Source: Bacteroidia bacterium (GTDB lineage Bacteria > Bacteroidota > Bacteroidia > AKYH767-A > OLB10). Taken from it: a stretch of 64,000 bases of DNA. Under the pieces are notes generated by a model that did not search any database, had not been told where the DNA came from, and was given only the letters and a program-made list of their open reading frames with translations. Location of the stretch: contig JBAOIA010000012.1 in NCBI GenBank assembly GCA_037045145.1, positions 857,550 to 921,549 on the forward strand, given 5' to 3'. Below, in pieces: positions 5,044-35,996 of this stretch. The position numbers and the translations under genes are program-made. Positions within the stretch are counted from its first letter, which is position 1. Each line of letters starts with the position of its first letter.

Positions 5044-5392
5044 GATTGCAAATTTTGAACAAAGGTAGTGATTCAATAAAAGTCAGTAAATTATTTTGTG
5101 CAAAAAAGAAAATATCTTAAATACTAAAGTAGAAGTAATAGTCTAGCTTAAAAAATCAACCAACTATACTCAATAAAAAGTATTAATTTAAAAAACAACG
5201 TATAAAACTTTTCTTATGAAGTTAATATAATGAGAAACACAGAATTTTTAGCTACCCACCTTTCAAACATTCAAGGCATGACCTACTTAAGTCATTTGTA
5301 CTTATTATAATTATCACATACTTTCAATGACTTTAATCATTACCCAATCTATAGCCAGATGCTTCCTTTGCACCGGAATTAAAATACTATTT

Positions 5393-6757
5393 ATGCTTTC
5401 ACTTTATAAAGTCAAAAATGCAGTAAATAGTGGTCTCATTGTCCTGTTTTTCACCTATACACTTACTACAAATTTACAAGCACAGGATACGCTAAAATCA
5501 GAAAATAATTTTGACATCCGAGGTCAACTGAGAACACGTTTTGAATTACGTGATGGTGCCTTTAGGCCACTTACAGAAAAAGAACAACCGGCAGCATTGG
5601 TAAGCGAAAGAATTCGCCTTACTTTTGACTACTCTTACAAAGATTTGCTTGAAGTAAAAATTTCTCCGCAGGCTGTTGGAATCTGGGGTCAGGCAAATAT
5701 GGTGCAGGGTGCAGAATACAGCGGTAATCAGTTTGCCATATTTGAAGCCTGGTCAAAAATCAATCTATCACCAAGTGTAAATGTAAAAATCGGTAGGCAA
5801 ATTATTTCTTTGGATGATGAGCGTTTTTTTGGCGAATTAGATTGGGCACAAGGAGGTCGTGCGCATGATGCTCTGGCAATTAACTTCCTTAAAAAATCTT
5901 TTGAGTTACGTGGATATGCAGCCTTCAATCAGAATTACAAAGTATTGTATGCAAACAACCTGAATAACTCCTCTGGGAATTTGTATTCAACAACCGATGG
6001 ATTTCCCTACAAGTGGATGCAAACAATATGGGCCAATATTCCTGTTGGAAAATATTATAGATTCACACTGCTTGCAAACAATCTTGGATTTCAACAAGCT
6101 ACCAGCAGCACCATAGACACCAACACCCTCTACACACAAACATTCGGCTGGAACAACTATTTCAAGAAAAACAAGACTGATATACATGTTGCAGCTTATT
6201 ATCAATACAGTGATAATTTACATGCAATAAATACAAATGCTTTTTTAATCACAGCGAATGCTGCATTTCAAATTTCCAACAAACTTAATCTGGGTCTAGG
6301 AAGTGATTATGTGAGTGGTAATGATGTTGGAAAAACAAACAAGATTAACCATGCATTTAATCCATACTTTCATACAGGGCATAAGTTTTATGGCAACATG
6401 GACTACTACTATGCAGGCAATCCACATAAAAACACAGGAATATCCGATAGCTATTTAAAAGTAAACTTTAAAACTACCGGCAAACTTGCGCTAAATGCAA
6501 TATTGCATCAGTTTATTTCTACTAACAAAATCGGTGACAGCTATAATAAAAACTACAACAGCAATCTTGGTCAGGAGTTAGATTTATTATTCTCATTAAA
6601 AGTGAATACCTTTACAACCTTTACCGGTGGATACTCATTTTATTTAGCGACATCAACACTGAAGTATTTAAAAAATACTCCGGCAGCAAACGATTATCAG
6701 CAATGGTTATGGTTTTCGCTAAACGTAACACCACACTTTTTAAAAACAAATTTTTAA
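5393..6757 (+). CDS. Outer-membrane beta-barrel, alginate-export-like family (putative porin/channel)
   Basis: A signal peptide is followed by alternating amphipathic beta-strand-type sequence rich in Y, N and G. 'QLRTRFELRDGAF' is an N-terminal motif typical of alginate-export-like barrels. Start chosen at the internal Met preceding the signal peptide. Sits directly upstream of nirK. Confidence 0.55.
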   Translation: MLSLYKVKNAVNSGLIVLFFTYTLTTNLQAQDTLKSENNFDIRGQLRTRFELRDGAFRPLTEKEQPAALVSERIRLTFDYSYKDLLEVKISPQAVGIWGQANMVQGAEYSGNQFAIFEAWSKINLSPSVNVKIGRQIISLDDERFFGELDWAQGGRAHDALAINFLKKSFELRGYAAFNQNYKVLYANNLNNSSGNLYSTTDGFPYKWMQTIWANIPVGKYYRFTLLANNLGFQQATSSTIDTNTLYTQTFGWNNYFKKNKTDIHVAAYYQYSDNLHAINTNAFLITANAAFQISNKLNLGLGSDYVSGNDVGKTNKINHAFNPYFHTGHKFYGNMDYYYAGNPHKNTGISDSYLKVNFKTTGKLALNAILHQFISTNKIGDSYNKNYNSNLGQELDLLFSLKVNTFTTFTGGYSFYLATSTLKYLKNTPAANDYQQWLWFSLNVTPHFLKTNF

Positions 6758-22100: not shown

Positions 22101-23476
22101 AATTTTTCATTGTAAGTAAAATCTGTACTACTGAGTTTTTTTGCATTGGTAATTAACTCATAGTCCTGCTGTGGCGAAAAATTGTAAACTGAAGATAATG
22201 GGTCGAGTACAGAAGATGCAGACTGAAAATTACGAATACCACTATAGGTTGTTGTTAGTTTCTGATAGAGGTTGTTTGACAGCTGGTCTGACGGATAAAC
22301 AGATGTGCCTTGTCCAACAAAAGAGGAAGCATAGGCATTGTACTCTCCCAAATCCTGCATGGCTACGAGGTTTCTTGTCTGATCCTGTGAGTTGAAGTTT
22401 ACCTGAGTAATCCAGACTTCTATTTTGGTGATGCTGATGGGTGAAACAATGGTAGGCAATTTGCTTACCGCTTCATCATAATGTTCTCTGAAATATTGAG
22501 AGATGTAAAAGTGCCTGTTGGCTTCATACTGATCACCATCAATATCAAAATTAGTGACCTGGCCACCTCCGGGAGGTACATTGATGGTGCTTGCCTGCCC
22601 TTTTTGCTGTGAGAAAATTGTTGTAACGCCAAGTCTTCCGAACTGCAACTGTGTTTTTATCCCGAACAAACTCTGGCTACCTTTTATTAATGTCCCCGTT
22701 AATGGTAAGGTAACGTTTCCTGCTTCTATTTTTCTGATAATCTCATCTTCATAGCCTGTATATTCAAGCTTCATTTGGTTTTCGAAATCGAAACTCGCTT
22801 CGGTGTTGTAGTTGACACTGAGTTTCATCTTCTCTCCTATGTTTCCAATTACATTCATTTGAATTTTCTCGTTAAAATCAAAAGATGTAAGGCGTCTTTG
22901 TTTTTCCGGGATCTGTGGATTGTCGGTGCGGTTGATGTTAACTCCAAAAGTCAATTCTGCAGAGCCCTGTGGGCGAATGTCTATGGTGTTGCCACCAAAT
23001 ATCCTGTCAAATGTTTCGCCTGCAACATAAATTTTAGGAATTAGCGGTTTGCGGGTAATGGCATCTTCACCTTCTGCCCTTTCTTTCCAATATTGCTGTG
23101 TTGATTTACGAAACTGATCTTCTTTAAACTCCTCAAATGTCATGTAGGAAGGGTTACGGAAAAAATCTTTGCCTATTTTTTCATTTATGTCGTACTCTCT
23201 TGTTTCGGGGTTGTATTCAACTGAGGTATTAACATTGGAAGGTGTGGTTCCGTAAAGCGGGCTATGATCGTAAGGGTTGGAATATGGGTCGGTTAACCTG
23301 TCGTTAAAAGGATAAGGAAGGTTAACAGGAGTATCAACAGGAAATGGAATGGTACGTGTTCCTGTAAGGTCTGAATAGTCTGAAAAAGATGATGGACTGC
23401 CTCCGCCATTGACATACATCAACGGGAATGCAAACAAACTTAATACTGAATAACGAAGCAATTTTAGTCCTTGCAA
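16145..23476 (-). CDS. sprA: Type IX secretion system translocon SprA (Sov), 2443 aa
   Basis: The size, the signal peptide and the long beta-strand-rich sequence with a K/P-rich linker ('PPKPKTPKKKEPKVEAKAPD') are characteristic of SprA. Other T9SS cargo genes occur in the same window. Confidence 0.85.
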   Translation of the reverse strand: MQGLKLLRYSVLSLFAFPLMYVNGGGSPSSFSDYSDLTGTRTIPFPVDTPVNLPYPFNDRLTDPYSNPYDHSPLYGTTPSNVNTSVEYNPETREYDINEKIGKDFFRNPSYMTFEEFKEDQFRKSTQQYWKERAEGEDAITRKPLIPKIYVAGETFDRIFGGNTIDIRPQGSAELTFGVNINRTDNPQIPEKQRRLTSFDFNEKIQMNVIGNIGEKMKLSVNYNTEASFDFENQMKLEYTGYEDEIIRKIEAGNVTLPLTGTLIKGSQSLFGIKTQLQFGRLGVTTIFSQQKGQASTINVPPGGGQVTNFDIDGDQYEANRHFYISQYFREHYDEAVSKLPTIVSPISITKIEVWITQVNFNSQDQTRNLVAMQDLGEYNAYASSFVGQGTSVYPSDQLSNNLYQKLTTTYSGIRNFQSASSVLDPLSSVYNFSPQQDYELITNAKKLSSTDFTYNEKLGFISLNSELRNDQALAVAFEYTVNGKVYRVGELTTSGIDPSQPLIVKLIRGRNFNTTLPSWKLMMKNVYNLNAFQISSEKFRLDVLYFDNAAGSYVRQLPEPNEPKIANKSLIRILNADNLNSSGDATQSGDGIFDYVEGITVNSATGRIILPSVEPFGRYLESKFSNTSTAAKYVFKELYDSTKTIALAQGKNKFKLKGSYQSSSGSEISLNAINIPQGSVKVTAGGTELVENQDYTVDYNLGRVKIINTSVLNSATPIKVSLESNSLFSVQSKTLMGARFDYKFSKDFAVGGTFMHLNERPITRKVNIGDEPISNSIFGLDGTYRTRSRFITKLVDKIPLINTKEESSVSLNGEFAYLLPGHSKAIGKKGNAYIDAFEGTQSTIPLNIAGQWFLASVPRFQPTLFPEFDYVSATNDTLGYGYNRAKIAWYNIDPTAFYRSNSTVSLSAAERSNHNVRQISEKELFPKRQYSNGIVPYMNTFDISFYPDERGPYNYETSARAGLSAGINANGNLVDPSSRWGGFMRKVETSNFEESNIQYIQFWLMDPFNGDAPDSSLSNTGTLYFNLGDISEDVLRDGYESYENGLPTTATPAAYRQNAWGRTPVAQNVLYAFDRDESTRKQQDVGLDGLGNDDEKLHFLTNFLDYIDANVTNQTVKDAIHDDPSSDDFSYFRGDAYTNADGILKRYKNFNGTENNSPVAGSGTFVPSSTQTPDAEDANRINGMEVDENYFQYKVDIDPSKLVVGQNYVSDVLENVAALNLPDASGKTITWYLIKIPVNDPTRERIGQISDLKSVKFIRVFAKGFSGPKVLRLAKFEFLRGEWRKYDYKLTGILSQPAVFDVGAVSLEENSNREPINYVLPPDFEREIDVTSTNQRQLNEQSLSFKVCELADGDMKVCYKNTTLDMRNYKHVKMVIHAESFLPPANPTNDGELYAVVRLGSDFTDNYYDYRIPLKMTPFGSTDPTVIWPKENDFDIDLDKLTDAKLERNNAGVAFTDEYSKLDGNNVIFIKGNPTLSEVKVMMLGLWNPSGENPAFPPRPPDDGLAKCAEVWFNEFRMSDFNDKGGWATIGRAQVKLADLGNVSVSGGYSTHGFGSLESKVGERSKEDVTNYDVATSLELGKFFPSSTGLTVPMYFGYGEVFSNPQYDPLDPDIEFSRSISNIDDSKRKQNRKRFSQDYTRRKSLNFTNVKKNKTGKNASKSRIYDIENFNFTYGYTEVYRRNINTEYDIQKDYLGAIGYNFNTNPKPITPFSKMKGKSKYLRPVKDFNFNYMPSTFNFRWDVNRHYGELKVRDVNAVLNQGVSDNSIPVLYDKRFTMNRQYGTSWDITRALKFEFNANNQSKVDEPDGALNSEEKRDSVRKNFFNLGRNTDYMHNASLSYNLPLNKLPITDWISINTRYSTTYHWTASPLIVNPDNGRYYTNPALGNTIQNSNSIQVNNSLNMTSLYNKWKLYKKLTAPPKPKTPKKKEPKVEAKAPDAAKDSLKTKSVKPPEKKKEQEINPAIKALAKVIFSLKNVSFNWNETNGLLLPGFNRQSEWLGQNWDGSSAPGFAFTFGSQNQDIRERAAKNGWLTTDSTFNSQFTSTYTQNITGRATLEPFTGFNIDVNFNRNYSLSTTENYRAFNSPRANGRYYETLARVETGNFSISNLMWGTSFTKDRKDYSSTIFERFAENRKILSERLGNENPNSSGVGIDGYRDGYSGTSQEVVILSFLSAYSKKSASRMSLDLFPSIPLPNWTVRYDGLTKIAFVKNLFQSVNLNHGYRSTYNVNSFTTDVSYVPGGNARDINMDFIPKRQIGQVSLSEQFSPLIGIDITWKNRNNKSSGSKSATERGGRSSGGNFTTRFEYKRDRNISLTLAGIQVTEVKGREFTFGAGYRIPNFKFPFGLFKSVNSRRSNDLNTTLDFSVRKNTTILRKLVEGTNQPTAGLTIISIKLASDYTVSERLNLRFFFEKTINTPVVSTSYPNANTAVGITIRFTLSQ

Positions 23477-23636: not shown

Positions 23637-24221
23637 TTATAAATTTTTTAAAGCTTCTCTCAGCAAAACCTCAACAGACTGAAACTCACCACCACCAGCC
23701 ATCACTTTATTTAGCTCTTTTTCAGCCACATTTCTGTTAAAGCCAAGAGTAAGCAAAGCACTTAACGCTTCTTCCTTAATTGTATTGCCTTGTGTTAATA
23801 AAACCGGTGCAGAGGCGCCTGCCTTTCCTAACTTGTCTTTAAGGTCTATGACTATGCGCTGTGCGGTTTTGTCGCCTATGCCTTTAATTTTTTTAATTAC
23901 AGCCACATTGCCTGTGGTTATGGCACTTTGCAATTCTGTAGTGCTTAGCGATGAAAGCATGACTCTGGCAGTGCCCGGACCCACACCTGATACTGAAATA
24001 AGATTACGGAAAAGCTGTCTTTCATCTTCATCGGCAAAACCAAAAAGAAGGTGTGCATCTTCTTTAATAGATAAATGGGCATAAACTTTTGCACTCTGTG
24101 CATCTTTAAGTTTTGAATAAGTTTGCAGTGAGACCTGTAGTTGATATCCTACTCCATTGGCTTCAACAACAATGTAGGTGGCAGTTGCATGGGTTATTTT
24201 TCCTGAAATATAATCGTACAT
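23637..24221 (-). CDS. ruvA: Holliday junction DNA helicase RuvA
   Basis: 'MYDYISGKITHATATYIVVEANGVGYQLQVS' is the RuvA OB-fold N-terminus; the HhH motifs 'GIGDKTAQRIV' follow. Confidence 0.9.
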   Translation of the reverse strand: MYDYISGKITHATATYIVVEANGVGYQLQVSLQTYSKLKDAQSAKVYAHLSIKEDAHLLFGFADEDERQLFRNLISVSGVGPGTARVMLSSLSTTELQSAITTGNVAVIKKIKGIGDKTAQRIVIDLKDKLGKAGASAPVLLTQGNTIKEEALSALLTLGFNRNVAEKELNKVMAGGGEFQSVEVLLREALKNL

Positions 24222-24602
24222 TATCTTTTATAATTTTTTGCTACGCTAAAACGCGACCTCAAACGTACGGAAAGTTGATGAGTTGACGAATTACTGAACT
24301 TTTGAATTGCCATGTTGAAGAACTGATGCATGTGTCAAATGAAATTATAAATACACTAATGTTTAGTGGCTTTTCTAGATACACATTATGAAATTTGGAA
24401 AGTAAAACAAAAACAACCCTATCCTATACTCCCCATACAACTTGAAGCCTTCTTTGTTTTGATGTAAATTGAAATGAAATTTTTCATGTTTTATACCATC
24501 TTCAAACAAGTCAATGAGTCATACTTTTTGATGTAAACCTATTTCAGGGCAAGGCAAAATGGGCTCAAAGGAGCGCGACTTGACAGGTTAGGTCAAATTC
24601 AA

Positions 24603-25122: not shown

Positions 25123-25356
25123 TCTGTGAAAAAATTAATTTCAAAAACATGTTCAAATATAGGAATAATGTAGTGTATTTAGATAATAAAAATTGATCAT
25201 AGCAATGCACACACTAACAGGAATAAATCGGGAGCAAATAACTTTTTTTAACTTTGAAAGTCAGGTAGCTCCAGACAACGAAATCCGTTTTATAGATGCT
25301 TTTGTTGAAGAGTTTATTTCTCCTGTCTTGGGCGTAAAGGAGCGCGACCTGACAGT
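25123..25356 (+). mobile_element. MITE-like IS derivative, copy 1. It retains the left end and the first roughly 55 codons of an IS5/IS1182-type transposase (DUF772-like N-terminus)
   Basis: About 90% identical to 27018..27258. It encodes 'MHTLTGINREQITFFNFESQVAPDNEIRFIDAFVEEFIS...KERDLTV*', which matches the 'NPVRfIDAFVd' transposase N-terminal motif. There is no DDE domain. Confidence 0.6.
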
Positions 25357-25380
25357 TGAAGTCAATTAGTGGCTATGGCT

Positions 25381-26946
25381 TTATTCATTCTGCAATACTT
25401 TAGTCAAATCTGTTGCAGTAAAATTTTTGTCTTGTGTGTCGTATAAAGTATTGCCAATCATAAATGCATTTGATGTCGCTTCAACTTCCGCAATTCTTTT
25501 TCCCTCTTTGTTTACAATCAAAGTATTTTTATCTTTTGCGAAGAATTTAAAATCGTTTTTTCGTTCGTAACAAATACTCAACTCATTAAAGTCAATTGTT
25601 TTAGATATGCTAAGTTGTTCGTCAAGTGATAATGTCTTGTACTGATTTGTGAATACAAACAACTTTGTAGAGTCAGATTGATTGAGATTTATTAAATCAC
25701 CGCTTTGAGCTGTAATAAAAACTTGGCTTCCAACAAAGTATTTCAACTCTCCAAAATCGTCTTTTGGAAATGATTTTTGCAAAATTTCATTTCCAGTTTC
25801 CATTGAGTATTTTGCGACTCTGTTTTTAAAAGTAAAATATATGTCTTTGCTGTGTAGTTCAAAACTCAATATCGGGTCGTCTTTGACATCTATTATCGAT
25901 AAAAATATTTGATTACCTGTTTGCCCGTCAAAAGCAGCAAAAAATGGCTTACCAAAGTCTAACTGTCTGTTACCCATAAAAGCCATCCCTTTATTAACCA
26001 TATATATGATGTTTCCTTTTATGAAGATTGTAGATTTGCTTGCTATGTCATCAGGAAAAGGGAACTTCCATATAACTTCTCCCGTTTGCATATCAATTTT
26101 AACCAGTTTTTCTTTTGAGGCAAAATAAATATTGCTACTATCAACTAAAGTATTTGAAACTAAATCTCGAACCAAATTGTGTCCTGTGGACATTACAAAA
26201 GTACCAGTCAGTAAGCCCAATGCCGCACCAGCCGCATTAGCTGCAACGGTTCGTGAATAATCTTTTTTACCAGTAACAGAGTAGTAGTCCCATCCTATTC
26301 CTGTTTTTATATTTATTTTGTGCTAACCTGCTGCTGCAACAATTAAAGTGGAGTCATCTATATAAAAAACATCGTTCCAGCCAAATTCCCTAAATAAATA
26401 TCGTTTCCAAAGTATGTTACCATTTTTTAAATCTATTCCTTCGAGTTCGTTTGTATAGCCTGTTGAGTTTCTAAATTTATAGCCAATACCAATATTGTCC
26501 ACAGGGTCAACGAAATAAATATTGTTTTTGACTTTCCAAAGTTTTTCTCCTGTATTTATATCAAGGCAATAACTCTTATTTCCAAAAGAATGAATTATTG
26601 TTTTACTAAACTGTTGTAAATTACTCGCATGAAATGCGATTTTTTTACTCCATAAAACCTTTTGGTTTTTAATGTCGAATTGAATAATTTTTCCACTTTT
26701 GTCAAGCCATTTTCCGTTTTTACTCAAGCCCCTTAGCTGAACTGTTAAAAGTCCGGTTGTTTCGTCTAAAAACGTTTCATGAATTCTGTCAGGGAAAACA
26801 TATTCCATACCTTTTACAACAAAACTATCAACAAGGCTTTTGCCAAACACCTTTTCATTGCTTAAAACCTGAATTTGATTTTTCTGGCAATATCCCGCTG
26901 TTGTAATTAAAAGCGAAAATCCAAAAATTATTTTTTCTATTTTCAT
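25381..26946 (-). pseudogene. PQQ-like/BamB-like beta-propeller repeat lipoprotein gene interrupted by an in-frame TAG at 26323-26325
   Basis: The ORFs 26323..26946 and 25381..26220 are in the same frame. The 102 nt between them (26221..26322) translate without any stop ('...VAAAG*HKINIKTGIGWDYYSVTGKKDYSRTVAANAAGAALGLLTGT...'). Both halves carry 'G..LW' propeller-blade motifs. The downstream half begins at TTG only in the ORF track. Confidence 0.6.
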
Positions 26947-27017
26947 GTGTTTGTTTACTGTCTTTTATTGAGGTGTTTGTTTGTTTTAGCGAGTATCATC
27001 ATGCCATTGGCTATAAC

Positions 27018-27258
27018 AGCAGTCTGTGAAAAAAAATAATTTCAAAAACATGTTCAAATATAGGGATAATGTTGTGTGTTTAGATAATAAATATTTGACG
27101 TAGCAATGTCCGCATTAACAGGAATAAATCGGGAGCGAATAACTTTTTCAAACCATGAAAGTCAGATAGCTCCAGACAATGAAATCCGTTTTATAGATGC
27201 TTTTGTAGAAGAGTTTATTTCAACTGTTAGGGGCGCAAAGGGGCGCGACCTGACGGTT
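27018..27258 (+). mobile_element. MITE-like IS derivative, copy 2 (same element as 25123..25356)
   Basis: Encodes 'MSALTGINRERITFSNHESQIAPDNEIRFIDAFVEEFIS...'. It is collinear with copy 1 from 'gcagtctgtgaaaaaa' through 'gcgcgacctgac(a/g)g'. Confidence 0.6.
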
Positions 27259-27666
27259 TGGGTATTGCCGAAGTGGCGGATTATTAGCACTAAAGTTCAA
27301 TAGAAATACTACTGTTGAACCTTGCACAATTGTTTCATAGAAGCACTTCTCCCGCCATTTTGGCAATACCGTGTTATAGCCAGTGGTTCTGTTAATCTGT
27401 CCTTGTAAACCATTGTCGTTATTGAGTTTCATTGTCTTTGTCGTGTTGGTTTGTGCGTGTTGCGGATTTTTAATATTTTCAGAAGAAGGGAGAAAAAAAT
27501 TGAATTTCTTCTTGGGTTGGGATAAGCACACTCTTTGCCAAGTTTTGGCTTGTGTGTCGGCTTCCCGAAGGGTCGGGACAGGCCGTGCGACTTGGCAATG
27601 TGTGTGCTTTTGTGCGTTGACTTTTCATTTGGCAAATGTAGTAAATGTTTTAAATTGAAACAAATG

Positions 27667-27698
27667 TTTGTTTTGTATTAAAACAATCTTTATCTTTG
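27667..27698 (+). promoter_or_regulatory. Putative promoter of the XRE-Panacea/toxin operon
   Basis: A -33 TTTG at 27667-27670 is followed after a 20-nt spacer by the -7 box TATCTTTG at 27691-27698. The ATG is at 27728. Confidence 0.35.
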
Positions 27699-27727
27699 TC
27701 CCGTTAAACAGCGAAACATAAATTGAT

Positions 27728-28531
27728 ATGAACATAAAATTGTCACAAAAGCAAATAGGTCAGAGGATAACCGAACTTCGTAAAATGAAAGGGTTGTCTC
27801 AGGAAGATTTGGCTAAAAGTGTCAAAATTTCCCGACCGTCTTTGGCTCAAATTGAGTTAGGAAACAGAAGCGTTGATATTCTTGAATTGCAAAAACTGTC
27901 ATTGGTTTTGGAGTTTTCGCTGGACGATTTTATGTCTAAGGATTTTTCTGCAAGTCAAGATGTTGATTTGAAAGAAGAAAAAAAGGCAAAGAAAGAAGAA
28001 GAACGTATTTCAGTGCCAACCTTGCAAGTCAATAAGTTTAAAAATGTCTTGTTGTATATCCTTGAACGCTGTGCAGGTAAGCCAAATGTTGGTGAAACGG
28101 TTCTTTATAAGTTGCTCTATTTCTCGGACTTCAATTATTATGAATTGTATGAGGAACATTTAACAGGTGCTAAATATCGCAAATTACCTTATGGGCCAGT
28201 TCCGCAAAAATTAGATACAATCATTGGTCAAATGATTGAAAAAGGTCAGTTGCAAAGAGTGAAAACAGAATACCATGGTTATCCTCAAACTCGCTATTTG
28301 CCTTTAGAAAAAGCTGATTTAACTCAATTAAGGGCAAGTGAAAAAGAAATCATTGACAGGGTTATAGAACAAATGAGTGATTGGTCTGCTGCTGCAATCA
28401 GCAACTATTCTCATAAGGATATGCCTTGGCTTGCTTCAAAGGAAGGAGAAGAAATAAATTATGAATTAGCTTTTTATAGAGATGCTCCTTTCTCTGTGAG
28501 AAACTATGGAGATGAAATTGAAGAACAATGA
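27728..28531 (+). CDS. HTH-XRE DNA-binding protein with a C-terminal Panacea (DUF4065, SocA-like) domain; putative antitoxin
   Basis: The N-terminal 'QIGQRITELRKMKGLSQEDLAKSVKISRPSLAQIELG' is an XRE helix-turn-helix. The C-terminal 'VLYKLLYFSDFNYYELYEEHLTGAKYRKLPYGPVP' fits the Panacea domain consensus. Confidence 0.75.
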   Translation: MNIKLSQKQIGQRITELRKMKGLSQEDLAKSVKISRPSLAQIELGNRSVDILELQKLSLVLEFSLDDFMSKDFSASQDVDLKEEKKAKKEEERISVPTLQVNKFKNVLLYILERCAGKPNVGETVLYKLLYFSDFNYYELYEEHLTGAKYRKLPYGPVPQKLDTIIGQMIEKGQLQRVKTEYHGYPQTRYLPLEKADLTQLRASEKEIIDRVIEQMSDWSAAAISNYSHKDMPWLASKEGEEINYELAFYRDAPFSVRNYGDEIEEQ

Positions 28532-28872
28532 CCTTTGACGAATTAACCGAATTTAAAAAGGATTTGAAAAACCTTTTAAAAAAATACAGAACGCTAAATG
28601 ACGATTTAGATGTGGTTAAACGAGTGCTAGAAGTTACACCCGATGAACGACCACCGTTTAGTTTTCGTATTGATAATTTGGGTTTAGAAACGTGTATCAT
28701 CAAGGTTAAGAAAATTGCTTGTAAAGCATTGAAAGGAAGAGGGGTAAATTCAGGGTTGAGATTGATTTATGCTCACTTTCCTGAAGAACAAAAAATTACC
28801 TTCATTGAATTGTATCATAAGAATGACAAGGAAAATGAAGACAAAAAAAGAATAACGGATAATTTTAAATAG
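28528..28872 (+). CDS. RelE/ParE-superfamily-like toxin, translationally coupled to the Panacea protein
   Basis: An ATGA overlap joins it to the upstream gene. 'KALKGRGVNSGLRLIYAHFPEEQKITFIELYHKNDKEN' fits the RelE/ParE core pattern 'G..R.IY......I.fi.l.H'. Confidence 0.55.
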   Translation: MTFDELTEFKKDLKNLLKKYRTLNDDLDVVKRVLEVTPDERPPFSFRIDNLGLETCIIKVKKIACKALKGRGVNSGLRLIYAHFPEEQKITFIELYHKNDKENEDKKRITDNFK

Positions 28873-28881
28873 TCAAATATC

Positions 28882-29115
28882 ATGAGTAAGAAAAATCAAC
28901 ATGTAGTCCCAAGTGGAAAAGAATGGGCGGTAAAAGGCGAAGGCAATAGCCGTAAAACTGCTATTGTGAACACACAAGCAGAAGCAATTAAAATTGCAAG
29001 AGAGATTGCCATTAACAATAAATCAGAAGTCGTTATCCATCGTTCTGACGGAACCATTCGTGATAAAGACTCTTATGGAAACGACCCTAATCCACCTAAA
29101 GACAAAAAGCATTAA
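28882..29115 (+). CDS. DUF2188-family small protein
   Basis: 'HVVPSGKEWAVKGEGNSRKTAIVNTQAEAIKIAREIAINNKSEVVIHRSDGTIRDKDSYGNDP' matches the DUF2188 consensus as I recall it. Confidence 0.65.
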   Translation: MSKKNQHVVPSGKEWAVKGEGNSRKTAIVNTQAEAIKIAREIAINNKSEVVIHRSDGTIRDKDSYGNDPNPPKDKKH

Positions 29116-29118
29116 GCG

Positions 29119-29340
29119 ATGATAGACATAAGTAAACAATCCGTAAATATTGACTGCCCTGAATGTAAACGGTCAATTTCTGTAACTATTCGGCAAGTAG
29201 CTGATGAAGCACGGATAAAATGTTCTTGCGGTCAGGAAATACAGCTGAAAGACAGTAATGGCAACAATCAAAAGGCAATCAGAGATATCAATAAGTCCTT
29301 TAGGGAACTCGAAAACACATTAAAAAAATTCGGACGATGA
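29119..29340 (+). CDS. Small zinc-ribbon protein (CPEC...C-x-CGQ), hypothetical
   Basis: It has four Cys arranged CxxC...CxC. It sits 3 nt after the DUF2188 gene and shares an ATGA overlap with the next gene. Confidence 0.4.
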   Translation: MIDISKQSVNIDCPECKRSISVTIRQVADEARIKCSCGQEIQLKDSNGNNQKAIRDINKSFRELENTLKKFGR

Positions 29341-29822
29341 AAAATTTCTACCTCTACAATAACCGCGTTGAAATTGTCAACGACAACGGAAGCATTTTCA
29401 CAATCTACTTCAACGAACATAGCGGAAAGGTTTATTACCGCTTTAAGATTGGCACTTTATCCAAAATAAAGCACCCGGGTATTTATTTGGGTGAAGATGC
29501 TTATGGCACACATTACTTTTTGCACAATCATTATCACTATGGAAAGGCACACATCACAACGGCTGCCGATTTTATTGAAGGACAAGCGATTTACATTTAC
29601 AACGAAAAGTGCAGCAATACTCCTTTGAAAGTAATTGAAATTGGGTTAAATGAAATACTCAGGGGCGAAAGCTACAAGCCCATTACTTACAACTGCCAAA
29701 CCTATACCAACACGGCTTGCCATAATCAACGCAAAAGTGCCGATGCCGAAAAATGGGTAGGTGGGCTTGTGTTGGGTTCGCTTGCTTTCCTCTTGATAAG
29801 TGCCATTGCAGGAAATAAATAA
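29337..29822 (+). CDS. LRAT/PLAAT-like (circularly permuted NlpC/P60 papain-fold) protein with a C-terminal transmembrane helix; putative phospholipase/acyltransferase
   Basis: The H-box 'KHPGIYLGEDAYGTHYFLHN' (His...His) is followed about 60 aa later by 'ITYNCQTY', a Cys in an NCEHF-like position. The C-terminal 'WVGGLVLGSLAFLLISAIAG' is a transmembrane segment. The His-before-Cys order matches the LRAT family. Confidence 0.45.
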   Translation: MKNFYLYNNRVEIVNDNGSIFTIYFNEHSGKVYYRFKIGTLSKIKHPGIYLGEDAYGTHYFLHNHYHYGKAHITTAADFIEGQAIYIYNEKCSNTPLKVIEIGLNEILRGESYKPITYNCQTYTNTACHNQRKSADAEKWVGGLVLGSLAFLLISAIAGNK

Positions 29823-29858
29823 TCATATAAAATCTGAAACTATCGAATATACTTTTAC

Positions 29859-30473
29859 ATGAACAAGAATACAATCATCATCCTAATCGTTGTCATTGTG
29901 ATTATGGGATTAGGTCTTTGGAAGGTGAATGAAACCTTACAAGAAGAAAGAAAAAAGCGAAAGGAAGCCGAACAAGCCAATGTGCGGTTGATTATGGACA
30001 GCATACGCAGGCAAAAAGGTTTTACCGAAGCGGTGAAACTGGAACTGGATAATCTGGCCAAACATTTTGAAGACATTGAACCGAATGTAACGGCTAAAAT
30101 TGCTAAAGCCATTCAGTTGATAGAAATAAACCAAACCGAAAATGCCATTGAAGATTTGGCCGTAATCATGGAAAACCTGCTGGAAGATTATTACAAAAAA
30201 GACAACGGCTTTGTTGCCTTCTTGAAAAACCGCAGGGCGGACCTACATCATTTGCTTACCTATTGCAATAAGGACAAAAAAATAAGCGATGTAGAGTTGC
30301 AGTTTTTTCTTGGCGTAAAAACCATACGCAACAAAGAAGACCACACACTAAATCAAAAGCTGGACGATTACCTGAACGCTACCGGTTTAATTGTAGGCAT
30401 CGGTGCCATTGTAAAAATTGCTTCGTTTTGGAAACAGAAAAAGCAATTGGAACTTATCCCAGTAAGGGCGTAA
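29859..30473 (+). CDS. Membrane-anchored protein with an N-terminal TM helix, a coiled coil and a C-terminal alpha-helical domain carrying an Rx4H (HEPN/DUF4145-like) motif
   Basis: N-terminal TM 'IIILIVVIVIMGLGLW'; a KEAE-rich coiled coil; C-terminal 'FLGVKTIRNKEDHTLNQ', which matches Rx4-6H. Confidence 0.4.
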   Translation: MNKNTIIILIVVIVIMGLGLWKVNETLQEERKKRKEAEQANVRLIMDSIRRQKGFTEAVKLELDNLAKHFEDIEPNVTAKIAKAIQLIEINQTENAIEDLAVIMENLLEDYYKKDNGFVAFLKNRRADLHHLLTYCNKDKKISDVELQFFLGVKTIRNKEDHTLNQKLDDYLNATGLIVGIGAIVKIASFWKQKKQLELIPVRA

Positions 30474-30478
30474 TACAT

Positions 30479-31861
30479 TTACGCTTTTACCTTTTTGTAT
30501 TTTACTTTTTTCTCCGCAGCTATTTTCATGGGCTTTTCTTCAATGGAATATGCTTTGGTTTTTTTGCCGCCTTTTTTCCCCTGAGCTTGCCGAAGGGTTT
30601 CCTTTTCTGCTTTAATCTTTTCCAATAAAACACTGGCAGGTTCATCTTCCGGATTTTGTGCAACCAACTCGCCACGGAATGCTTTTGCCAAAATGCTTTG
30701 GGGAAGTTTATCCAGCATGGCTTTGGCTTTGGTGTAGCGGGCTTCTAACTTATCGGCAAATGCAAAGAGTTGTTCTACCTTTCGGACGATTTCTTTTTGT
30801 TCTACGACTTCAGGAAGCGGGATCGATAGTGTTTTTAGTTGGGTAGTGTTTATCCTAGGTCTTGTTGCACCGTGAATATTCAAAACCAATTGTTCAAATG
30901 AACGCATTGAAGTCAATACAAAAAGCAGAAAGAACTTGTCTATTTTATTTTCATCTGGTCGAATACAAAAGCAATCAGCTTTTGCAATTGCTTTAGTTGG
31001 TAAATAAGGTAAAATGCAAGCCCTTATTTCTTCAGAAATAAAAGAAGAGAAAATTATATCACCTTCGCCAACTGTATGACGCAATAAAGACTGATATTTT
31101 TCTTTTGTTATATAAGTTTCCTTTTCGTGAACAAAATATAGATGTTCAATATTTTCAAGACGAATAACTCGAATACCTTTATCAGTGTAATCAGCAGTTT
31201 TTAAATTTGAACCAAATGGGCCATCAAAAATTCCACCTTTCGGAATTACGGAGTTTAATTCAACTTCGTCCCATTCTTTAAATCCATTCTTCTTCTTCCA
31301 TTCCTCCGTCAACTTACCACTTACAGCAGCAGCCAACACACTTTGCCGAAATCGTTTTAAAATGATTGGTATTTTTTCTAACCGTTGTTTGTTGCTTTCT
31401 ACTTTTTGCATTACCGCATCTAGCTTGGCTACTATGCGGTGCTGCTCGTCAAGGGGTGGAAGGGGGATATGTATTTCTTTTTGTGCCTTTCCCGTTTGAA
31501 CAAACGGTTGGCCTGAACCCCCTTTTGGCCAAAAATTTTCATTATTCAATAAATAGAACAGGTAGTCAACATGTTTATCGTCATTTGCAAATGCTCTAAT
31601 TACCGAAGTATTAGCAATAGTTGTCCATTGCCCATTTGCTCTAAAACATTTACCACATCTTGCTCCAACAGCACTCAATATGATAGCTTCACCTTCTTCC
31701 TCAAAAAAATCAACTTTGCCATCAGGGCCAGTTCCACTAAATGCAATATATTTCCCATCTTCTTTGTAAACCTTTTTAGTTAAAGAAGAATTACCAGAAG
31801 TAATATTAACTACTTCACCTAATAACGGGAATTCCCAACCTTGTGGTAAACTATTCTCCAT
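30479..31861 (-). CDS. hsdS: Type I restriction-modification specificity subunit
   Basis: There are two target-recognition domains, each preceded by the conserved 'LP.GWE...LGE' opening, and a central coiled-coil repeat. Its start overlaps the stop of hsdM. Confidence 0.85.
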   Translation of the reverse strand: MENSLPQGWEFPLLGEVVNITSGNSSLTKKVYKEDGKYIAFSGTGPDGKVDFFEEEGEAIILSAVGARCGKCFRANGQWTTIANTSVIRAFANDDKHVDYLFYLLNNENFWPKGGSGQPFVQTGKAQKEIHIPLPPLDEQHRIVAKLDAVMQKVESNKQRLEKIPIILKRFRQSVLAAAVSGKLTEEWKKKNGFKEWDEVELNSVIPKGGIFDGPFGSNLKTADYTDKGIRVIRLENIEHLYFVHEKETYITKEKYQSLLRHTVGEGDIIFSSFISEEIRACILPYLPTKAIAKADCFCIRPDENKIDKFFLLFVLTSMRSFEQLVLNIHGATRPRINTTQLKTLSIPLPEVVEQKEIVRKVEQLFAFADKLEARYTKAKAMLDKLPQSILAKAFRGELVAQNPEDEPASVLLEKIKAEKETLRQAQGKKGGKKTKAYSIEEKPMKIAAEKKVKYKKVKA

Positions 31862-33257
31862 TGAATTCCAGTAGGGTTAATATTTCTTTTAAATCGTCCA
31901 CCACAGCTTCCAGTTCTGCAATGGCTTCTGTGGCAAGGTCGTTGGGTTCGGGTAAGCTGTCGGCATCTTCTATGCTTTCGTCTCTCAGCCAGGTAATGTC
32001 GAGTTTGTAATTCCGTTTTGTAATTTCCTCTATTGTAAAACAACGGAAACGCCCTGTTTCGCCTTCGTCTTTTCGTTTGCTTTTTCCGTTAGGGTCGGTG
32101 CCGTAGCATTTTTCAAAATCGGTAAAATGCTTGTCGGTTAGCGGACGGTCTTTTTTGGTAATGCCTTCAATGTTGCTGCGGTTGTCGTAAATCCAAACTT
32201 TTTCGGTGGGCAAACCTTTCTGAAAGAAAATCACATTGGCTTTTACACCCTGTGCGTAGGGAGTAAAGGTTCCTCTGGGCAAACGCACAATGGTGTGCAG
32301 GTTGCAATCCTGCATCAGTATTTCAAATACTTCACCTGCTTTGTCTTCAAACAACACATTGTCGGGCAACACTATGGCAGCACGTCCACCCGGTTTCAGA
32401 GTGCTCATAATGTGCTGCACAAAATTCAACTGCTTGTTGCTGGTTTCTACCGTAAAATCATCCCGTTCGGGAACCTGGTTTGCTCCTTTTGTTCCAAAGG
32501 GTGGATTGGCCAACACCACATCAAACCTGGTGCTGTCGGGTGTGTTGTAAATGGTATCGCCCAGTTTTATTTTCGGGGTAACGCCATGCAAATACATATT
32601 CATCAAAGCCAGTCGCCTTGGCCTTGCCACCAACTCCTGTCCGTAATAGGTTTTTTCACGAATGCGTTTTACATCTTCACGGGGCAGCGCACCTTTGCTT
32701 TCCTGCATCAGCCATTCATAAGCCGATACTAAGAAACCACCTGTGCCGCAACTGGGGTCGGAAATGGTAAATGAACTTTTGCCTCTCGGGTCGGGCTTCA
32801 TTAACCGCACCATGCTTTGTATCAAAGGTCGTGGTGTAAAGTATTGCCCTGCACCCTTTTTGCCTTCGCTGGCGGCTTTTTCCAGCAGTCCCTCAAAGGC
32901 AGCACCTTTTACATCCACATCCATGCTCGTCCATTCGTCTTCTTCAATCAGGTTCAGCAGTTTTTTCAAACTCACCGGGTTGTTGAAGCGATTTTGTGCT
33001 TGTGTAAATATTTCACCTAACAGACCTTGCTCTTTGGCCAGTTCACGCAGGGTGTCGGTGTAATGGTCCATCAAATCGCCACCGCTTAATTTGGTCAGCG
33101 ATTGCCAGTTGTATTTTTTATGCAGATGCACTTCTTTTTCATCTGCCATTTTCAGGAAGAGAAGAAACGACAGTTGCTCTATGTAATCGTTATAATCAAT
33201 GCCCTCGTGGCGAAGCGTATGGCAAAAGCCCCACAATTTATTTACTACATCACTCAT
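31851..33257 (-). CDS. hsdM: Type I restriction-modification N6-adenine DNA methyltransferase subunit
   Basis: HsdM_N-type N-terminus; the motif I region 'DPSCGTGGFL' and motif IV 'NPPFG' are present. Confidence 0.9.
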   Translation of the reverse strand: MSDVVNKLWGFCHTLRHEGIDYNDYIEQLSFLLFLKMADEKEVHLHKKYNWQSLTKLSGGDLMDHYTDTLRELAKEQGLLGEIFTQAQNRFNNPVSLKKLLNLIEEDEWTSMDVDVKGAAFEGLLEKAASEGKKGAGQYFTPRPLIQSMVRLMKPDPRGKSSFTISDPSCGTGGFLVSAYEWLMQESKGALPREDVKRIREKTYYGQELVARPRRLALMNMYLHGVTPKIKLGDTIYNTPDSTRFDVVLANPPFGTKGANQVPERDDFTVETSNKQLNFVQHIMSTLKPGGRAAIVLPDNVLFEDKAGEVFEILMQDCNLHTIVRLPRGTFTPYAQGVKANVIFFQKGLPTEKVWIYDNRSNIEGITKKDRPLTDKHFTDFEKCYGTDPNGKSKRKDEGETGRFRCFTIEEITKRNYKLDITWLRDESIEDADSLPEPNDLATEAIAELEAVVDDLKEILTLLEFNGE

Positions 33258-33258
33258 A

Positions 33259-33945
33259 TTATGCTGCTATTGCTAAGTTTATTTCTTGAATCAATTTGGT
33301 GTAATCGTCTGCAAATACTTTTTTGAATTTGTTCAGTCCGCCTCTGTCAGCAAAAACGGGTAATTCCTGCAAATCTTCTTCGTCTAAAGTCATGTTTTGT
33401 TTTAGATGTTCTTTGATGTATTCCATCCATTTTTGTTGTTCGTCATTCAGCCTTTTTCCGGTTGTTACTTTCTGAATGGCTTGGTTCACCCGTTCTTCGG
33501 GGCTTAACAAAGGTTCGGTTTCTTTGGCTGCATGCTTTACCATGCTGATGATGTCAACGGCATCTTTCTGATAAACGATTTTGTGTGCCTTTTGCAAACT
33601 GGCTTCATCATAATTGCTCTCTTTTAGTTTTTGCCTTAGTTCGTTCAAAGCATTGGTGTTCCAATCTTTTGGCTTGTTTAACAAAATGCTGATGGCGGCA
33701 ATTTCATTTTCTTTTCGTTTTACAAATTCAGAAAATGCCAGTAAATAATCCATTGGTTGTAAACCGTATCTTCCTTCTGCTTCAAACAACACCATCGAAC
33801 TCACTTCGTCCTGCACCTCATACCCAACCAGAAAAACCTTTTTGGCTCTTTCGTAGTCCACCAATAGCTTTTGAAACTGCTCGTTTCGGAGCAATTCCAT
33901 CACACTGGTGAAGCTTTCAAATATTTCGGGTAACGATTTTGCCAT
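33259..33945 (-). CDS. HsdR C-terminal-domain-like protein (EcoEI_R_C/DUF3387-type helical domain) encoded as a separate ORF
   Basis: It starts in a TAATG overlap with the stop of the helicase ORF. The sizes add up: 683 aa plus 228 aa is about the length of a full HsdR. The domain identity is inferred from position and predicted helical composition, not from a recognised motif. Confidence 0.45.
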   Translation of the reverse strand: MAKSLPEIFESFTSVMELLRNEQFQKLLVDYERAKKVFLVGYEVQDEVSSMVLFEAEGRYGLQPMDYLLAFSEFVKRKENEIAAISILLNKPKDWNTNALNELRQKLKESNYDEASLQKAHKIVYQKDAVDIISMVKHAAKETEPLLSPEERVNQAIQKVTTGKRLNDEQQKWMEYIKEHLKQNMTLDEEDLQELPVFADRGGLNKFKKVFADDYTKLIQEINLAIAA

Positions 33946-35996
33946 TACTTATACTTATCAAAAAAATTAGAAATCTGCTCGGCAAATTTTCCCATATCGC
34001 CATCAGGAATATAGGTTTTGAATTTGTCACGGGCATTTCCACTCATATCTTTTTCAATTCTATGCAGTCGTTTTGCCAAACGCTTGGCATTGGCTCTGCG
34101 GTCTTCGTTGTTGTATATTTTTTCTATCAGTTCTTTAATGGTTATGGTATCGGTTCCCGGTGGGTCAATTTTAAAGTTGTAGCTGGCATCTTTAAAATAC
34201 TTTATCAATGTTCCGTTGAAACAATCAAAGATTACAAAGTGAGTTTTGCCGATGTCATCACATTTTCGTGTTCCTCTGCCCAACATTTGTTCCCAAAGAA
34301 TACGGCTTTTAACAGGTCGGAGAAAAACAATGTATTCCAGAGAAGGAATGTCAACTCCTGTGCTTAACATATCAACGGTAACCACAATTTTCGGATTGGG
34401 TCTGTTTCTAAACTCTTTAATTTTTTTCAAAGGTCTGTCCACCGTTGGGCTGCCTGTAATCTTTGCCACAAAATCGTCACCCTGATTAAAAACCTGTTTG
34501 CAAATGCTCACCAAACGGTCAGCATGTGAAATCATGGGTATGTCGTTGGATGCAAAAATCAAGGTTTTTGGAAAACGCCCTGTGCGTTGTTCCCACTCGT
34601 CAGTATATTTTTTTAGTTCTTCAATTATTTTTTGGTTGGTGTCGGGGGCTGTAATTTTTTCTTCAATCTCTGTTGAAGTAAATTCCCGCTCATCTTCCAA
34701 TTGGTCAATTTGTTCTCTGCCTGTTTCAGTGTCAATCATCCCCACTTGTTCGCCTTCTTTCAAAAAAGCTCCGTTCATCAACACTTCCGAATTGATAGCC
34801 ACAGCATCATAATCTACCAAAAACCCTTCGTCAATGGCTTGTTGCAATGGATAATTGAAAATAGGTTTTCCAAAATAGGCAACCGTATGTGATGCAGGCG
34901 TTGCAGTTAAACCAACTTTAACGGCATCAAAATGATTTAAAACATTTCGCCAAACATTCGTTTCTTTTGAAGTGTAACCTCTGTGGCACTCGTCAGCAAT
35001 AATCAAATCGAAAGCATGCGATGGAATTGAAAGCGTTTCTGCATCATCGTCTCCACTTCCTGCCTGCTCGGCAGACAGGTCTTCATCCTCACCAAATGCA
35101 CCCGCTTTGCCGTAAAGGTTAATTGCCATTCGCTGGATGGTGCAGACATAAAGAAAGGTTTTTGTTCCATCAGGATTTGTCAAATAGGAATTAGGCAACA
35201 CAGTTGGGTCGTATGCTTCCCCTTCAAAATCTTCTTTCTTAAAGCGTTGTGAGTATAATTCGTATTCGTCTTTAAACTTGATATTTCTCGGTGTGTCAAA
35301 TGATGCAAAAGCAGTAACGGCTTGTGCGGCTAACGACTTTCTATCAACCAAGAACAAAATGCGTTTAGCATAACCGGAAGCCAACATTCGGTAAACAAGA
35401 TTAACTGTGGTGAAAGTTTTTCCTGTTCCTGTTGCCATTGCTAAAAGCATCAGGCGTTTGCCGTCTTCCAAATTATTTTCAAAAGCTTGTATAGCTTCTT
35501 TTTGGTAAGGCCTAAGTCCGGGAGTATTAATGGGCCTGACTTTCAGCCATTGCAAAGCCGTATCTCGTTTTGCGTTAAATAAAGTTTCCATCGCTTCTGG
35601 CTTATGAAAACTGTAAATCTGTCGGCTTAAGTTTTTGTTGTCTCTTACATCTAAATAGTAAATCAATTCACCATTAGAAGAATACAAAAATGGAACTCGA
35701 TATTGATTCCATTCACCAATTGTCTTATCTGCACCTTTTGAATATCGCTTGGCTTGTTCCAACACATTTGCTGCACCAACCTCCAATTTCTTTGCTTCAA
35801 CCACACCTAATAAATTTCCATTTACAACCAAAGCATAGTCCGCAGGTCCGTTTTTTGTTTGCAATTCCTCAATTGCGTGATTTGTCAAAATAGACAAGTC
35901 CATTCCCTCAGAGTAAGGAATGATATGCCAACCGGCAGCTATTAGCTGCTGGTCAATTCTTTTCTTTCTTGTTATTTTCTCTGATTCGTATGTCAT
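33945..35996 (-). CDS. hsdR: Type I restriction enzyme R subunit (N-terminal nuclease plus SF2 helicase core)
   Basis: The HSDR_N-type nuclease N-terminus comes first. The helicase motifs follow: 'MATGTGKT' (motif I), 'DECHRG' (motif II) and 'QMLGRGTR' (motif VI). Confidence 0.85.
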   Translation of the reverse strand: MTYESEKITRKKRIDQQLIAAGWHIIPYSEGMDLSILTNHAIEELQTKNGPADYALVVNGNLLGVVEAKKLEVGAANVLEQAKRYSKGADKTIGEWNQYRVPFLYSSNGELIYYLDVRDNKNLSRQIYSFHKPEAMETLFNAKRDTALQWLKVRPINTPGLRPYQKEAIQAFENNLEDGKRLMLLAMATGTGKTFTTVNLVYRMLASGYAKRILFLVDRKSLAAQAVTAFASFDTPRNIKFKDEYELYSQRFKKEDFEGEAYDPTVLPNSYLTNPDGTKTFLYVCTIQRMAINLYGKAGAFGEDEDLSAEQAGSGDDDAETLSIPSHAFDLIIADECHRGYTSKETNVWRNVLNHFDAVKVGLTATPASHTVAYFGKPIFNYPLQQAIDEGFLVDYDAVAINSEVLMNGAFLKEGEQVGMIDTETGREQIDQLEDEREFTSTEIEEKITAPDTNQKIIEELKKYTDEWEQRTGRFPKTLIFASNDIPMISHADRLVSICKQVFNQGDDFVAKITGSPTVDRPLKKIKEFRNRPNPKIVVTVDMLSTGVDIPSLEYIVFLRPVKSRILWEQMLGRGTRKCDDIGKTHFVIFDCFNGTLIKYFKDASYNFKIDPPGTDTITIKELIEKIYNNEDRRANAKRLAKRLHRIEKDMSGNARDKFKTYIPDGDMGKFAEQISNFFDKYK

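Follow-up and report, generated by a model that had tools for sequence, protein, structure and literature searches.

The PLAAT/HRASLS-LRAT enzymes (PLAAT1-5 and LRAT) and the picornavirus 2A H-box/NC proteins share a permuted NlpC/P60 fold, in which the catalytic His precedes the Cys. HEPN-fold proteins serve as toxins in the MNT-HEPN (DUF86) systems, and Csx28 of the type VI-B2 CRISPR-Cas system is a transmembrane (TM) protein whose HEPN domain is divergent; it assembles into an octameric pore in the membrane and assists anti-phage defence as an auxiliary effector. In toxin-antitoxin (TA) networks, the Panacea and ImmA/Rosmer antitoxins serve as promiscuous hubs: they combine with many different toxins, some of which depolarise membranes, and RosmerTA gives protection from phage (Ernits et al.). 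The CapH/CapP regulators consist of a helix-turn-helix (HTH) repressor and an M78 metallopeptidase located upstream of and divergent from the regulated operon, and CapH/CapP-like pairs lie upstream of 'DUF2188 + hypothetical protein' operons (Lau et al. 2022). The tie of DUF2188 to defence is traced to Burroughs & Aravind 2020, as cited in Lau et al. 2022. Here we analyse a four-gene cassette (g1 to g4, positions 28882-30473) in a 64,000-nucleotide (nt) stretch of a Bacteroidia bacterium, contig JBAOIA010000012.1; the whole stretch is referred to as the window. An earlier reading of its sequence (the original prediction) had proposed the four genes as a novel defence system. The comparisons show that g2 and g3 are the constant, co-evolving core of the cassette. 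With moderate confidence, we interpret the cassette as part of a regulator-controlled modular effector array, in which an HTH antitoxin or regulator is combined with variable effector-type genes and which would act as an anti-phage or toxin conflict module.

The four open reading frames (ORFs) lie on the same strand, and their coordinates and spacing (3 nt, an ATGA overlap and 36 nt) agree with the original prediction. The predicted setting between a Panacea pair and a type I restriction-modification (R-M) system was also found. However, the cassette does not merely lie between the two but is apparently co-transcribed with the Panacea pair. The features of the region are as follows.

27691..27698, plus strand: Bacteroidetes-type -7 promoter motif TATCTTTG from a pattern scan, the putative promoter of the operon
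27728-28531, plus strand: PanA-type antitoxin/regulator of 267 amino acids (aa) with an N-terminal Xre HTH and a SocA/Panacea domain (Pfam SocA_Panacea, 1.9e-22; HTH_3, 2.2e-12)
28528-28872, plus strand: presumed toxin partner of PanA, RelE-like (weak Pfam RelE match, E 0.059), 114 aa, with an ATGA overlap with PanA
28882-29115, plus strand: g1, DUF2188 protein of 77 aa, variable accessory slot of the cassette
29119-29340, plus strand: g2, four-Cys zinc-ribbon protein of 73 aa with a C-terminal helix, constant partner of g3
29337-29822, plus strand: g3, LRAT/PLAAT-like permuted papain-fold enzyme (putative) of 161 aa with a C-terminal TM helix
29859-30473, plus strand: g4, 204 aa, with an N-terminal TM helix, a long helix and a C-terminal domain of predicted HEPN fold, optional mobile module
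30462..30490, plus strand: terminator-like hairpin with a 12-pair stem followed by the T-run CTTTTTGTAT, overlapping the g4 stop codon, a putative terminator

The intergenic distances in the order PanA, toxin, g1, g2, g3 and g4 are -4, 9, 3, -4 and 36 nt. The -7 motif is the sole one in 27000-30600 and lies 37 nt (start to start) ahead of the PanA start codon, with TTTG motifs 19-24 nt upstream of it in the pattern scan. The hairpin at the g4 stop is the only strong terminator-like hairpin. Because the toxin and g1 are separated by 9 nt and a single promoter motif and a single terminator-like hairpin enclose the genes, g1 to g4 are most likely the distal part of a six-gene operon of 2.8 kb, with the order PanA - RelE-like toxin - g1 - g2 - g3 - g4. 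The matching entry of a Bacteroidia metagenome-assembled genome (MAG; locus tags V9G42_13195-13215) lists a SocA-domain antitoxin, a hypothetical protein, a DUF2188 protein and three more hypothetical proteins; PanA is named SocA-domain antitoxin by NCBI, and cluster members of the 114-aa presumed toxin are named 'RelE' by JGI. Public metagenomes and MAGs contain 92, 105 and 67 homologous 90%-identity clusters for g2, g3 and g4, respectively, at 36-100% amino-acid identity, indicating that these are real genes rather than chance ORFs. The named sources of the clusters are Bacteroidota nearly throughout.

Homologous loci were collected around g3 (22 species genomes plus look-ups), around g4 (28 metagenome contigs plus look-ups) and, in a third set, around the 114-aa toxin. 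The loci, denoted by L numbers, were scored by tblastn and ORF clustering, and for the most part they are contigs of MAGs or metagenomes. In 24/24 g3 loci with visible upstream DNA, the cassette adjoins an HTH antitoxin or regulator module, a constant linkage that went unnoticed in the original prediction. In 9 of the 24 the module is PanA with the 114-aa RelE-like protein on the same strand as the cassette, and in one (L023) it is a PanA-like protein. The remaining 14 have an HTH with a Peptidase_M78 domain. Fused forms match PADLOC RmrA (6e-46) and precede a DUF3368/PIN protein; in the others the two genes are separate and divergent (capP, 1e-23). The divergent HTH + M78 arrangement, which is the CapH/CapP layout, occurs in L001, L003, L005, L022, L062 and L063, and in L005, L062 and L063 the pair is divergent from g1-g2-g3, as Lau et al. 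report for 'DUF2188 + hypothetical protein' operons, whereas the window has the same-strand HTH-Panacea and RelE-like genes.

The window cassette therefore resembles the PanA-PanT (Panacea) systems in its position behind an HTH-Panacea antitoxin, and in other genomes it resembles RosmerTA (RmrA HTH-M78) and CapH-CapP in lying behind or divergent from HTH + M78 genes. None of the PADLOC models, including those of RmrT and PanT, is matched by g2, g3 or g4. Most cassette loci moreover have a separate small toxin-like gene (RelE-like of 114 aa, or DUF3368/PIN) between the antitoxin and the cassette, suggesting that the cassette adds to those TA systems and is not simply their toxin. The PanA-toxin pair also stands alone (L074). 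The view that this pair is far commoner than the cassette (90%-cluster sizes of 336 vs. 6) was dropped; of three toxin lineages, two occur with the cassette and one without it.

The same order g1-g2-g3-g4 was found in at least eight independent loci (the window, L008, L013, L017, L034, L035, L038 and L042), as the neighbourhood check proposed with the original prediction called for. A single fixed four-gene system, as then envisaged, is not what the loci show: g2-g3 is constant, g1 is swapped or absent, and most g3 loci lack g4. The four-gene order recurs, but as a mosaic with a g2-g3 core and exchangeable slots 1 and 4. A comparison of L064 with the window illustrates the exchange, since PanA and the toxin are 98% and 96% identical, g2 82% and g3 73%, while slots 1 and 4 hold different genes. 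There, a Cys/His-rich 95-aa protein (L064 4353-4640) takes the place of the DUF2188 protein and an unrelated 183-aa protein with an N-terminal TM helix and a helical domain (L064 5353-5904) that of g4. Elsewhere, the slot after g3 is occupied by other TM-plus-helical proteins (a 152-aa family in L011/L042, followed by a caspase-like peptidase, and the 183-aa family in L064), by a caspase-like peptidase, by a CD-NTase + TIR-STING operon of a cyclic-oligonucleotide-based anti-phage signalling system (CBASS) or by nothing. The CBASS operon (352 and 312 aa) directly follows g3 in two unrelated contigs (L005 6676-8669 and L021 1770-3763), and in L005 g1-g2-g3 sit between the divergent CapH/CapP-like HTH + M78 pair and the CBASS genes. 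A stand-alone HNH protein of 106 aa also recurs (L011 7203-7523, L070 1673-1993, L056 5620-5985 and L058 5325-5690). It adjoins g4, even distant g4 genes without g1-g3, or sits between the RelE-like toxin and the DUF2188 gene, and could work together with g4 or represent a further exchangeable effector slot.

The zinc-ribbon assignment of g2 is borne out by its four cysteines, C13, C16, C35 and C37, each kept in at least 90% of 22 sequences. The pattern C13-x2-C16 ... C35-x-C37-G with a C-terminal helix is conserved down to 41% identity, and the protein is ~73 aa long in nearly all 92 clusters. No Pfam, NCBIfam or PADLOC family matches g2. The gene lies directly upstream of g3, mostly with a 4-nt overlap, in at least 16 independent loci over 40-95% identity, and L023 keeps the set despite a rearrangement to g2-g1-g3. 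Comparison of the pairwise-identity matrices of g2 and g3 gave a mirror-tree r of 0.92 (n=16, Mantel p <= 0.0005). The PanA-toxin control gave 0.95, g4-g3 0.70, PanA-g3 0.41 (not significant) and g1-g3 0.26. No g2-g3 domain fusions, which would be Rosetta-stone evidence, were found among the longer family members. g2 is translationally coupled to g3 and is probably its direct binding partner, as a modulator or a trigger sensor.

A classical type II TA pair, in which g3 would be a membrane-acting toxin and g2 its zinc-ribbon antitoxin, serving island addiction beside the unrelated neighbours g1 and g4, is an unlikely explanation. The small upstream gene overlaps the larger downstream gene by ATGA, co-evolution of the two is as tight as in the PanA-toxin control, and the loci belong to mobile DNA, L001/L003 having relaxase and integrase genes. 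Zinc-binding domains are also known to neutralise toxins in MqsA-type antitoxins (Ernits et al.). A type II toxin, however, is not expected to be kept without its antitoxin, and g3 is intact without a functional g2 in five loci, g2 being missing from L007, L010 and L016 and interrupted by an in-frame stop in L005 and L063, although some of these cases may be assembly errors. Thus, g3 is apparently not strongly toxic alone, or repression suffices, and g2 is unlikely to be an indispensable antitoxin. In addition, g2 has no DNA-binding domain for autoregulation, and the pair is never seen without the upstream HTH module.

The g3 family comprises 244 representatives at the 50%-identity level in a profile search. 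The AlphaFold2 (AF2) model of g3, with a predicted local distance difference test score (pLDDT) of 88, adopts the permuted NlpC/P60 papain-like fold with the catalytic His N-terminal to the Cys, and its seven best Foldseek matches are all PLAAT/HRASLS structures. The family profile matches HRASLS2 and PLAAT3 in the PDB at 5e-7 to 6e-6, and PPPDE at 0.03. HMMER alignment places C120 of g3 on the Cys of the PLAAT NCEHF motif and H46 on the PLAAT H-box; H63 corresponds, as judged by eye, to His35 of PLAAT3. H46 (KHPGIYLG), H63 and N119-C120-Q121 are invariant in the close family (42 sequences), and H46, H63, N119 and C120 are at least 90% conserved over 108 distant members. Compared with PLAAT, the H-box (R/A)HWAIYVG reads KHPGIYLG and NCEHF reads YNCQT, leaving the NC motif, the H-box and the second His in place with the Glu replaced by Gln. 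As in PLAAT, a hydrophobic C-terminal membrane anchor lies directly behind the catalytic domain, formed by the stretch WVGGLVLGSLAFLLISAIAG at about residues 138-158 (modelled helix 135-159), and g3 relatives keep this tail as one or two segments. Unlike PLAAT, with which it shares only 13-18% identity, g3 carries an additional N-terminal beta extension (four strands, residues 1-36 in the model), is bacterial and is encoded in an operon with a zinc-ribbon partner in defence islands.

The predicted LRAT/PLAAT-like assignment with a C-terminal TM helix is thus upheld by the fold, the H-box/NC residues and the hydrophobic tail. In the profile check it holds for part of the family and not for the window protein, which has no match to Pfam LRAT (PF04970) and falls short of its gathering threshold. 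Its sole Pfam match is a sub-threshold one to PPPDE (E 1.2e-3, 19 bits vs. a 29.2-bit cut-off). Among 108 family members, 26 match LRAT (best 4.6e-12), 29 PPPDE and 6 Peptidase_C92. The lack of an above-threshold PF04970 match suggests a distinct sister family within the clan, and profile and model together place g3 in the LRAT/PLAAT branch of the permuted papain-fold clan, as a putative Cys-His-His acyl-hydrolase/acyltransferase of LRAT/PLAAT type. As g3 is without a signal peptide, its catalytic domain is predicted to be cytoplasmic, and the tail helix should anchor the enzyme at the cytoplasmic face of the inner membrane. A phage or plasmid origin was considered for g3 and g4 and set aside, with no relatives of either in IMG/VR or among PLSDB plasmids.

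It is improbable that g3 is instead a PPPDE/YiiX-type peptidase, isopeptidase or amidase acting at the membrane on a protein, such as a ubiquitin-like conjugate or the neighbouring small proteins. The PPPDE match of the window protein and the PPPDE and Peptidase_C92 matches in the family point in this direction, as does the position of g3 directly before the CBASS genes in L005 and L021, since some CBASS types use ubiquitin-like conjugation (Lau et al. 2022). However, the H-box (HxGIYLG), the NC motif and the C-terminal membrane anchor are the PLAAT architecture, and the loci show no genes for ubiquitin-like, E1 or E2 proteins.

In g4, an N-terminal TM helix at about residues 5-23 is followed by a strongly basic stretch, which suggests that the HEPN domain faces the cytoplasm. 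The AF2 model (pLDDT 84) shows a helical bundle of the HEPN fold, and it comes closest in structure to RNase toxins of the HEPN type from TA systems (5yep, 8xdj and 7ae2). The motif I156-R157-N158-K159-E160-D161-H162 conforms to the Rx4-6H motif of the HEPN superfamily. R157, K159 and E160 are invariant across 32 sequences that reach down to 39% identity, and at least 90% of these keep N158, D161 and H162. This conservation is consistent with catalysis, and the predicted fold together with the conserved R157-x4-H162 supports the earlier description of g4 as a TM-HEPN protein with an Rx4H motif. HEPN likeness is found at the level of structure and not of profile membership, as no described HEPN family in Pfam, NCBIfam or PADLOC matches at E <= 1; a profile search of the PDB gave no match. 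g4 shares with the MNT-HEPN toxins SO_3166 (5yep) and Aphanizomenon HEPN (7ae2, 8xdj) an Rx4H motif with Asn after the Arg (RNKEDH). However, it is only 10-11% identical to them and has no Pfam HEPN match, it adds the N-terminal TM helix and a long connecting helix, and its operon is without an MNT nucleotidyltransferase antitoxin. Like Csx28, g4 is a protein of ~200 aa with one N-terminal TM helix and a HEPN-like helical bundle. In Csx28, which works as a pore, the HEPN Arg is locked in a salt bridge, whereas g4 keeps the R-N-x3-H motif; moreover, no Cas13 is present at the g4 locus.

The DUF2188 assignment of g1 is secure, with a Pfam DUF2188 (PF09954) match at E 4.4e-25 (88 bits vs. a 22-bit cut-off). 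g1 also matches PADLOC PDC-S16 at E 1.2e-36 over residues 1-73 of 75 profile positions, and both PDC-S16 models are matched end to end. It is the only one of the four with a phage family (phrog_3220, function not assigned, 1.6e-31). The novelty claimed for the combination therefore holds for g2, g3 and g4, for which PADLOC v2 has no model, and not for g1, which had been listed as a defence candidate before. By definition PDC-S16 is a one-gene candidate, whereas here the DUF2188 gene is one exchangeable slot in a larger operon and is not required for the occurrence of g2-g3. In the ORF-clustering set, g1 is present in 8/19 g3 loci, and it also occurs in further look-up and metagenome loci. Its two sequence types are not linked to the g3 phylogeny. 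The slot is filled by a Myb-like protein of 67-76 aa in L014, L016 and L027 and by the Cys-rich 95-aa protein in L064, and is empty elsewhere; in L070 the HNH protein precedes g1. The Myb/SANT-like protein (so judged by eye; L014 1565-1768, L016 7796-8023 and L027 7787-8017) stands before g2/g3, has the pattern 'SGKEWS..DLKKLEKLA...TP..LIA..LKRS..A.YSKA' and gave no PADLOC match.

The association of g4 with the other genes bears on whether the cassette is an obligate four-part abortive-infection system, with g1 and g2 as sensors and g3 and g4 as mutually dependent membrane effectors. g4 follows g3 in the window, L008, L013, L017, L034, L035, L036, L038, L042 and L057. Close-clade g4 genes (at least 72% identity) adjoin g3 in ~10/12 loci, the four-gene order recurs behind two different upstream modules, and the g4-g3 mirror-tree correlation is appreciable (0.70). 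In L040, the region 2656-6624 encodes a HigB-like 107-aa protein, an HTH-M78 fusion (367 aa), a 237-aa protein and a 111-aa TM protein, followed by a g3 homologue and g4, with neither g1 nor g2. The g3 homologue there has 193 aa, is only 31% identical to that of the window and carries a longer two-segment hydrophobic tail, while g4 is 73% identical, which suggests that g4 has been repeatedly recruited beside g3-type genes. Against an obligate system, g4 is absent from most g3 loci (L005, L009, L012, L014, L015, L018, L001, L003, L022, L063, L064 and L070) and in L011/L029 and L039 precedes g1, from which an HNH gene separates it. The distant g4 clade (36-53% identity; L031, L033, L044-L060) is never near g1-g3 but stands alone among YobI-ATPase, type IIG R-M, PLD and SIR2 genes. 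Furthermore, about half of the loci lack g1 or have another gene in its place, and its evolution is not coupled to that of g3. An obligate four-part system is accordingly hard to credit.

A chance neighbourhood of unrelated accessory genes at a recombination hot spot, with no defence or toxin role (e.g. ordinary membrane-lipid remodelling), is very improbable: it would fit the mosaic island, in which L064 has a nearly identical PanA and toxin with a more divergent g3, the repeats and transposase remnants close by and the annotation of all four products as only hypothetical or DUF, but not the g2-g3 linkage, overlap and co-evolution held over 40-95% identity, the HTH module in 24/24 loci, the patchy accessory distribution beside R-M, CBASS and OLD genes or the match of g1 to a defence-candidate model.

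Several points weigh against a regulator-controlled effector array. All of the evidence is computational, and the defence association draws on ~25 loci, the majority of them MAG contigs. The promoter and the terminator were called solely from consensus matches, the mirror-tree correlation may mean co-inheritance rather than physical interaction, and g3 stays intact in the loci that lack g2 or carry an in-frame stop in it. The g3 family scores PPPDE, a peptidase, as often as LRAT in Pfam, so that a protein substrate is possible; a TM-HEPN protein can be a pore rather than an RNase, as Csx28 is; and g3 and g4 are without PADLOC matches.

Under the array interpretation, the PanA HTH protein would hold the operon low in the uninfected cell, as would a CapH/RmrA-type HTH with an M78 peptidase in other genomes. 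Infection or DNA damage would inactivate the repressor or antitoxin. g3 might then attack inner-leaflet phospholipids, by phospholipase A1/2 activity or N-acyl transfer, while the membrane-tethered HEPN domain of g4 would cleave RNA or form a Csx28-like pore, and growth would halt or the cell would die ahead of phage release. A more specific form of this scheme is tentative and on balance doubtful. It takes g3 as a bacterial tail-anchored PLAAT/LRAT-like immune effector that is triggered by zinc-ribbon sensing or by loss of the HTH repressor and degrades or remodels inner-membrane phospholipids, with a HEPN RNase alongside. If true, relatives, possibly antecedents, of two groups would exist among prokaryotic anti-phage proteins: the eukaryotic PLAAT proteins, known for organelle-membrane degradation and as a picornavirus host factor, and the viral 2A H-box/NC proteins.

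No report linking LRAT-like proteins with phage defence, defence islands or TA systems was found in the searchable literature, nor any relevant one on NlpC with HEPN or on PDC-S16. On its sequences and modelled structures, the cassette is rated a putative regulator-controlled toxic-effector operon with an effector class for which no such role has been described so far. If functional, it would provide bacterial immunity or TA systems with a new effector class, a membrane-anchored LRAT/PLAAT-type acyl enzyme with a dedicated zinc-ribbon partner, and g4 would be the second membrane-tethered HEPN protein after Csx28. The little-understood DUF2188 candidates would be tied to concrete effectors, the Panacea and ImmA/M78-HTH hubs would be interchangeable front ends for shuffled effector arrays, and a eukaryotic family of antiviral relevance would gain, in g3, another possible relative in prokaryotes. 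As the operon is short and has clear catalytic-residue controls, the proposal is directly testable.

The defence-island context described in the original prediction was recovered, with the HTH-Panacea antitoxin, the type I R-M system and an OLD-family ATPase-TOPRIM gene all present in the window. Over the collected loci, the defence neighbours comprise type I/IIG R-M, OLD, CBASS, caspase-like, Abi_2, PDC-S31 and integrase/relaxase genes. The other genes around the cassette in the window are as follows.

23637-24221: ruvA
30479-31861: hsdS of the type I R-M system
31851-33257: hsdM of the type I R-M system
33259-33945 and 33945-35996, minus strand: split hsdR, consisting of a 228-aa EcoEI_R_C part and a 683-aa helicase/nuclease part that share one base
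36460-38391: OLD-family ATPase-TOPRIM gene
from 38939: housekeeping malic enzyme gene

The split of hsdR is either a frameshift or pseudogene or a natural split; in L005, HsdR and this C-terminal domain form one fused protein. Two copies of a 229-nt direct repeat, 87% identical, occupy 25129-25357 and 27030-27258 shortly before the PanA operon, with a related 37-nt piece at 24560-24596. Each 229-nt copy contains a ~60-aa ORF fragment, 'TGINRE.ITF.N.ESQ.APDNEIRFIDAFVEEFIS', that looks like a transposase N-terminal remnant, and the copies flank two pyrroloquinoline quinone (PQQ)/beta-propeller-like ORFs (25381-26220 and 26323-26946). The repeat may mark a past insertion or the island boundary; no tRNA or attachment-site evidence for the island was found. 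Just outside the island, upstream of ruvA, the minus strand carries a 2443-aa ORF with a TTG start (16145-23476).

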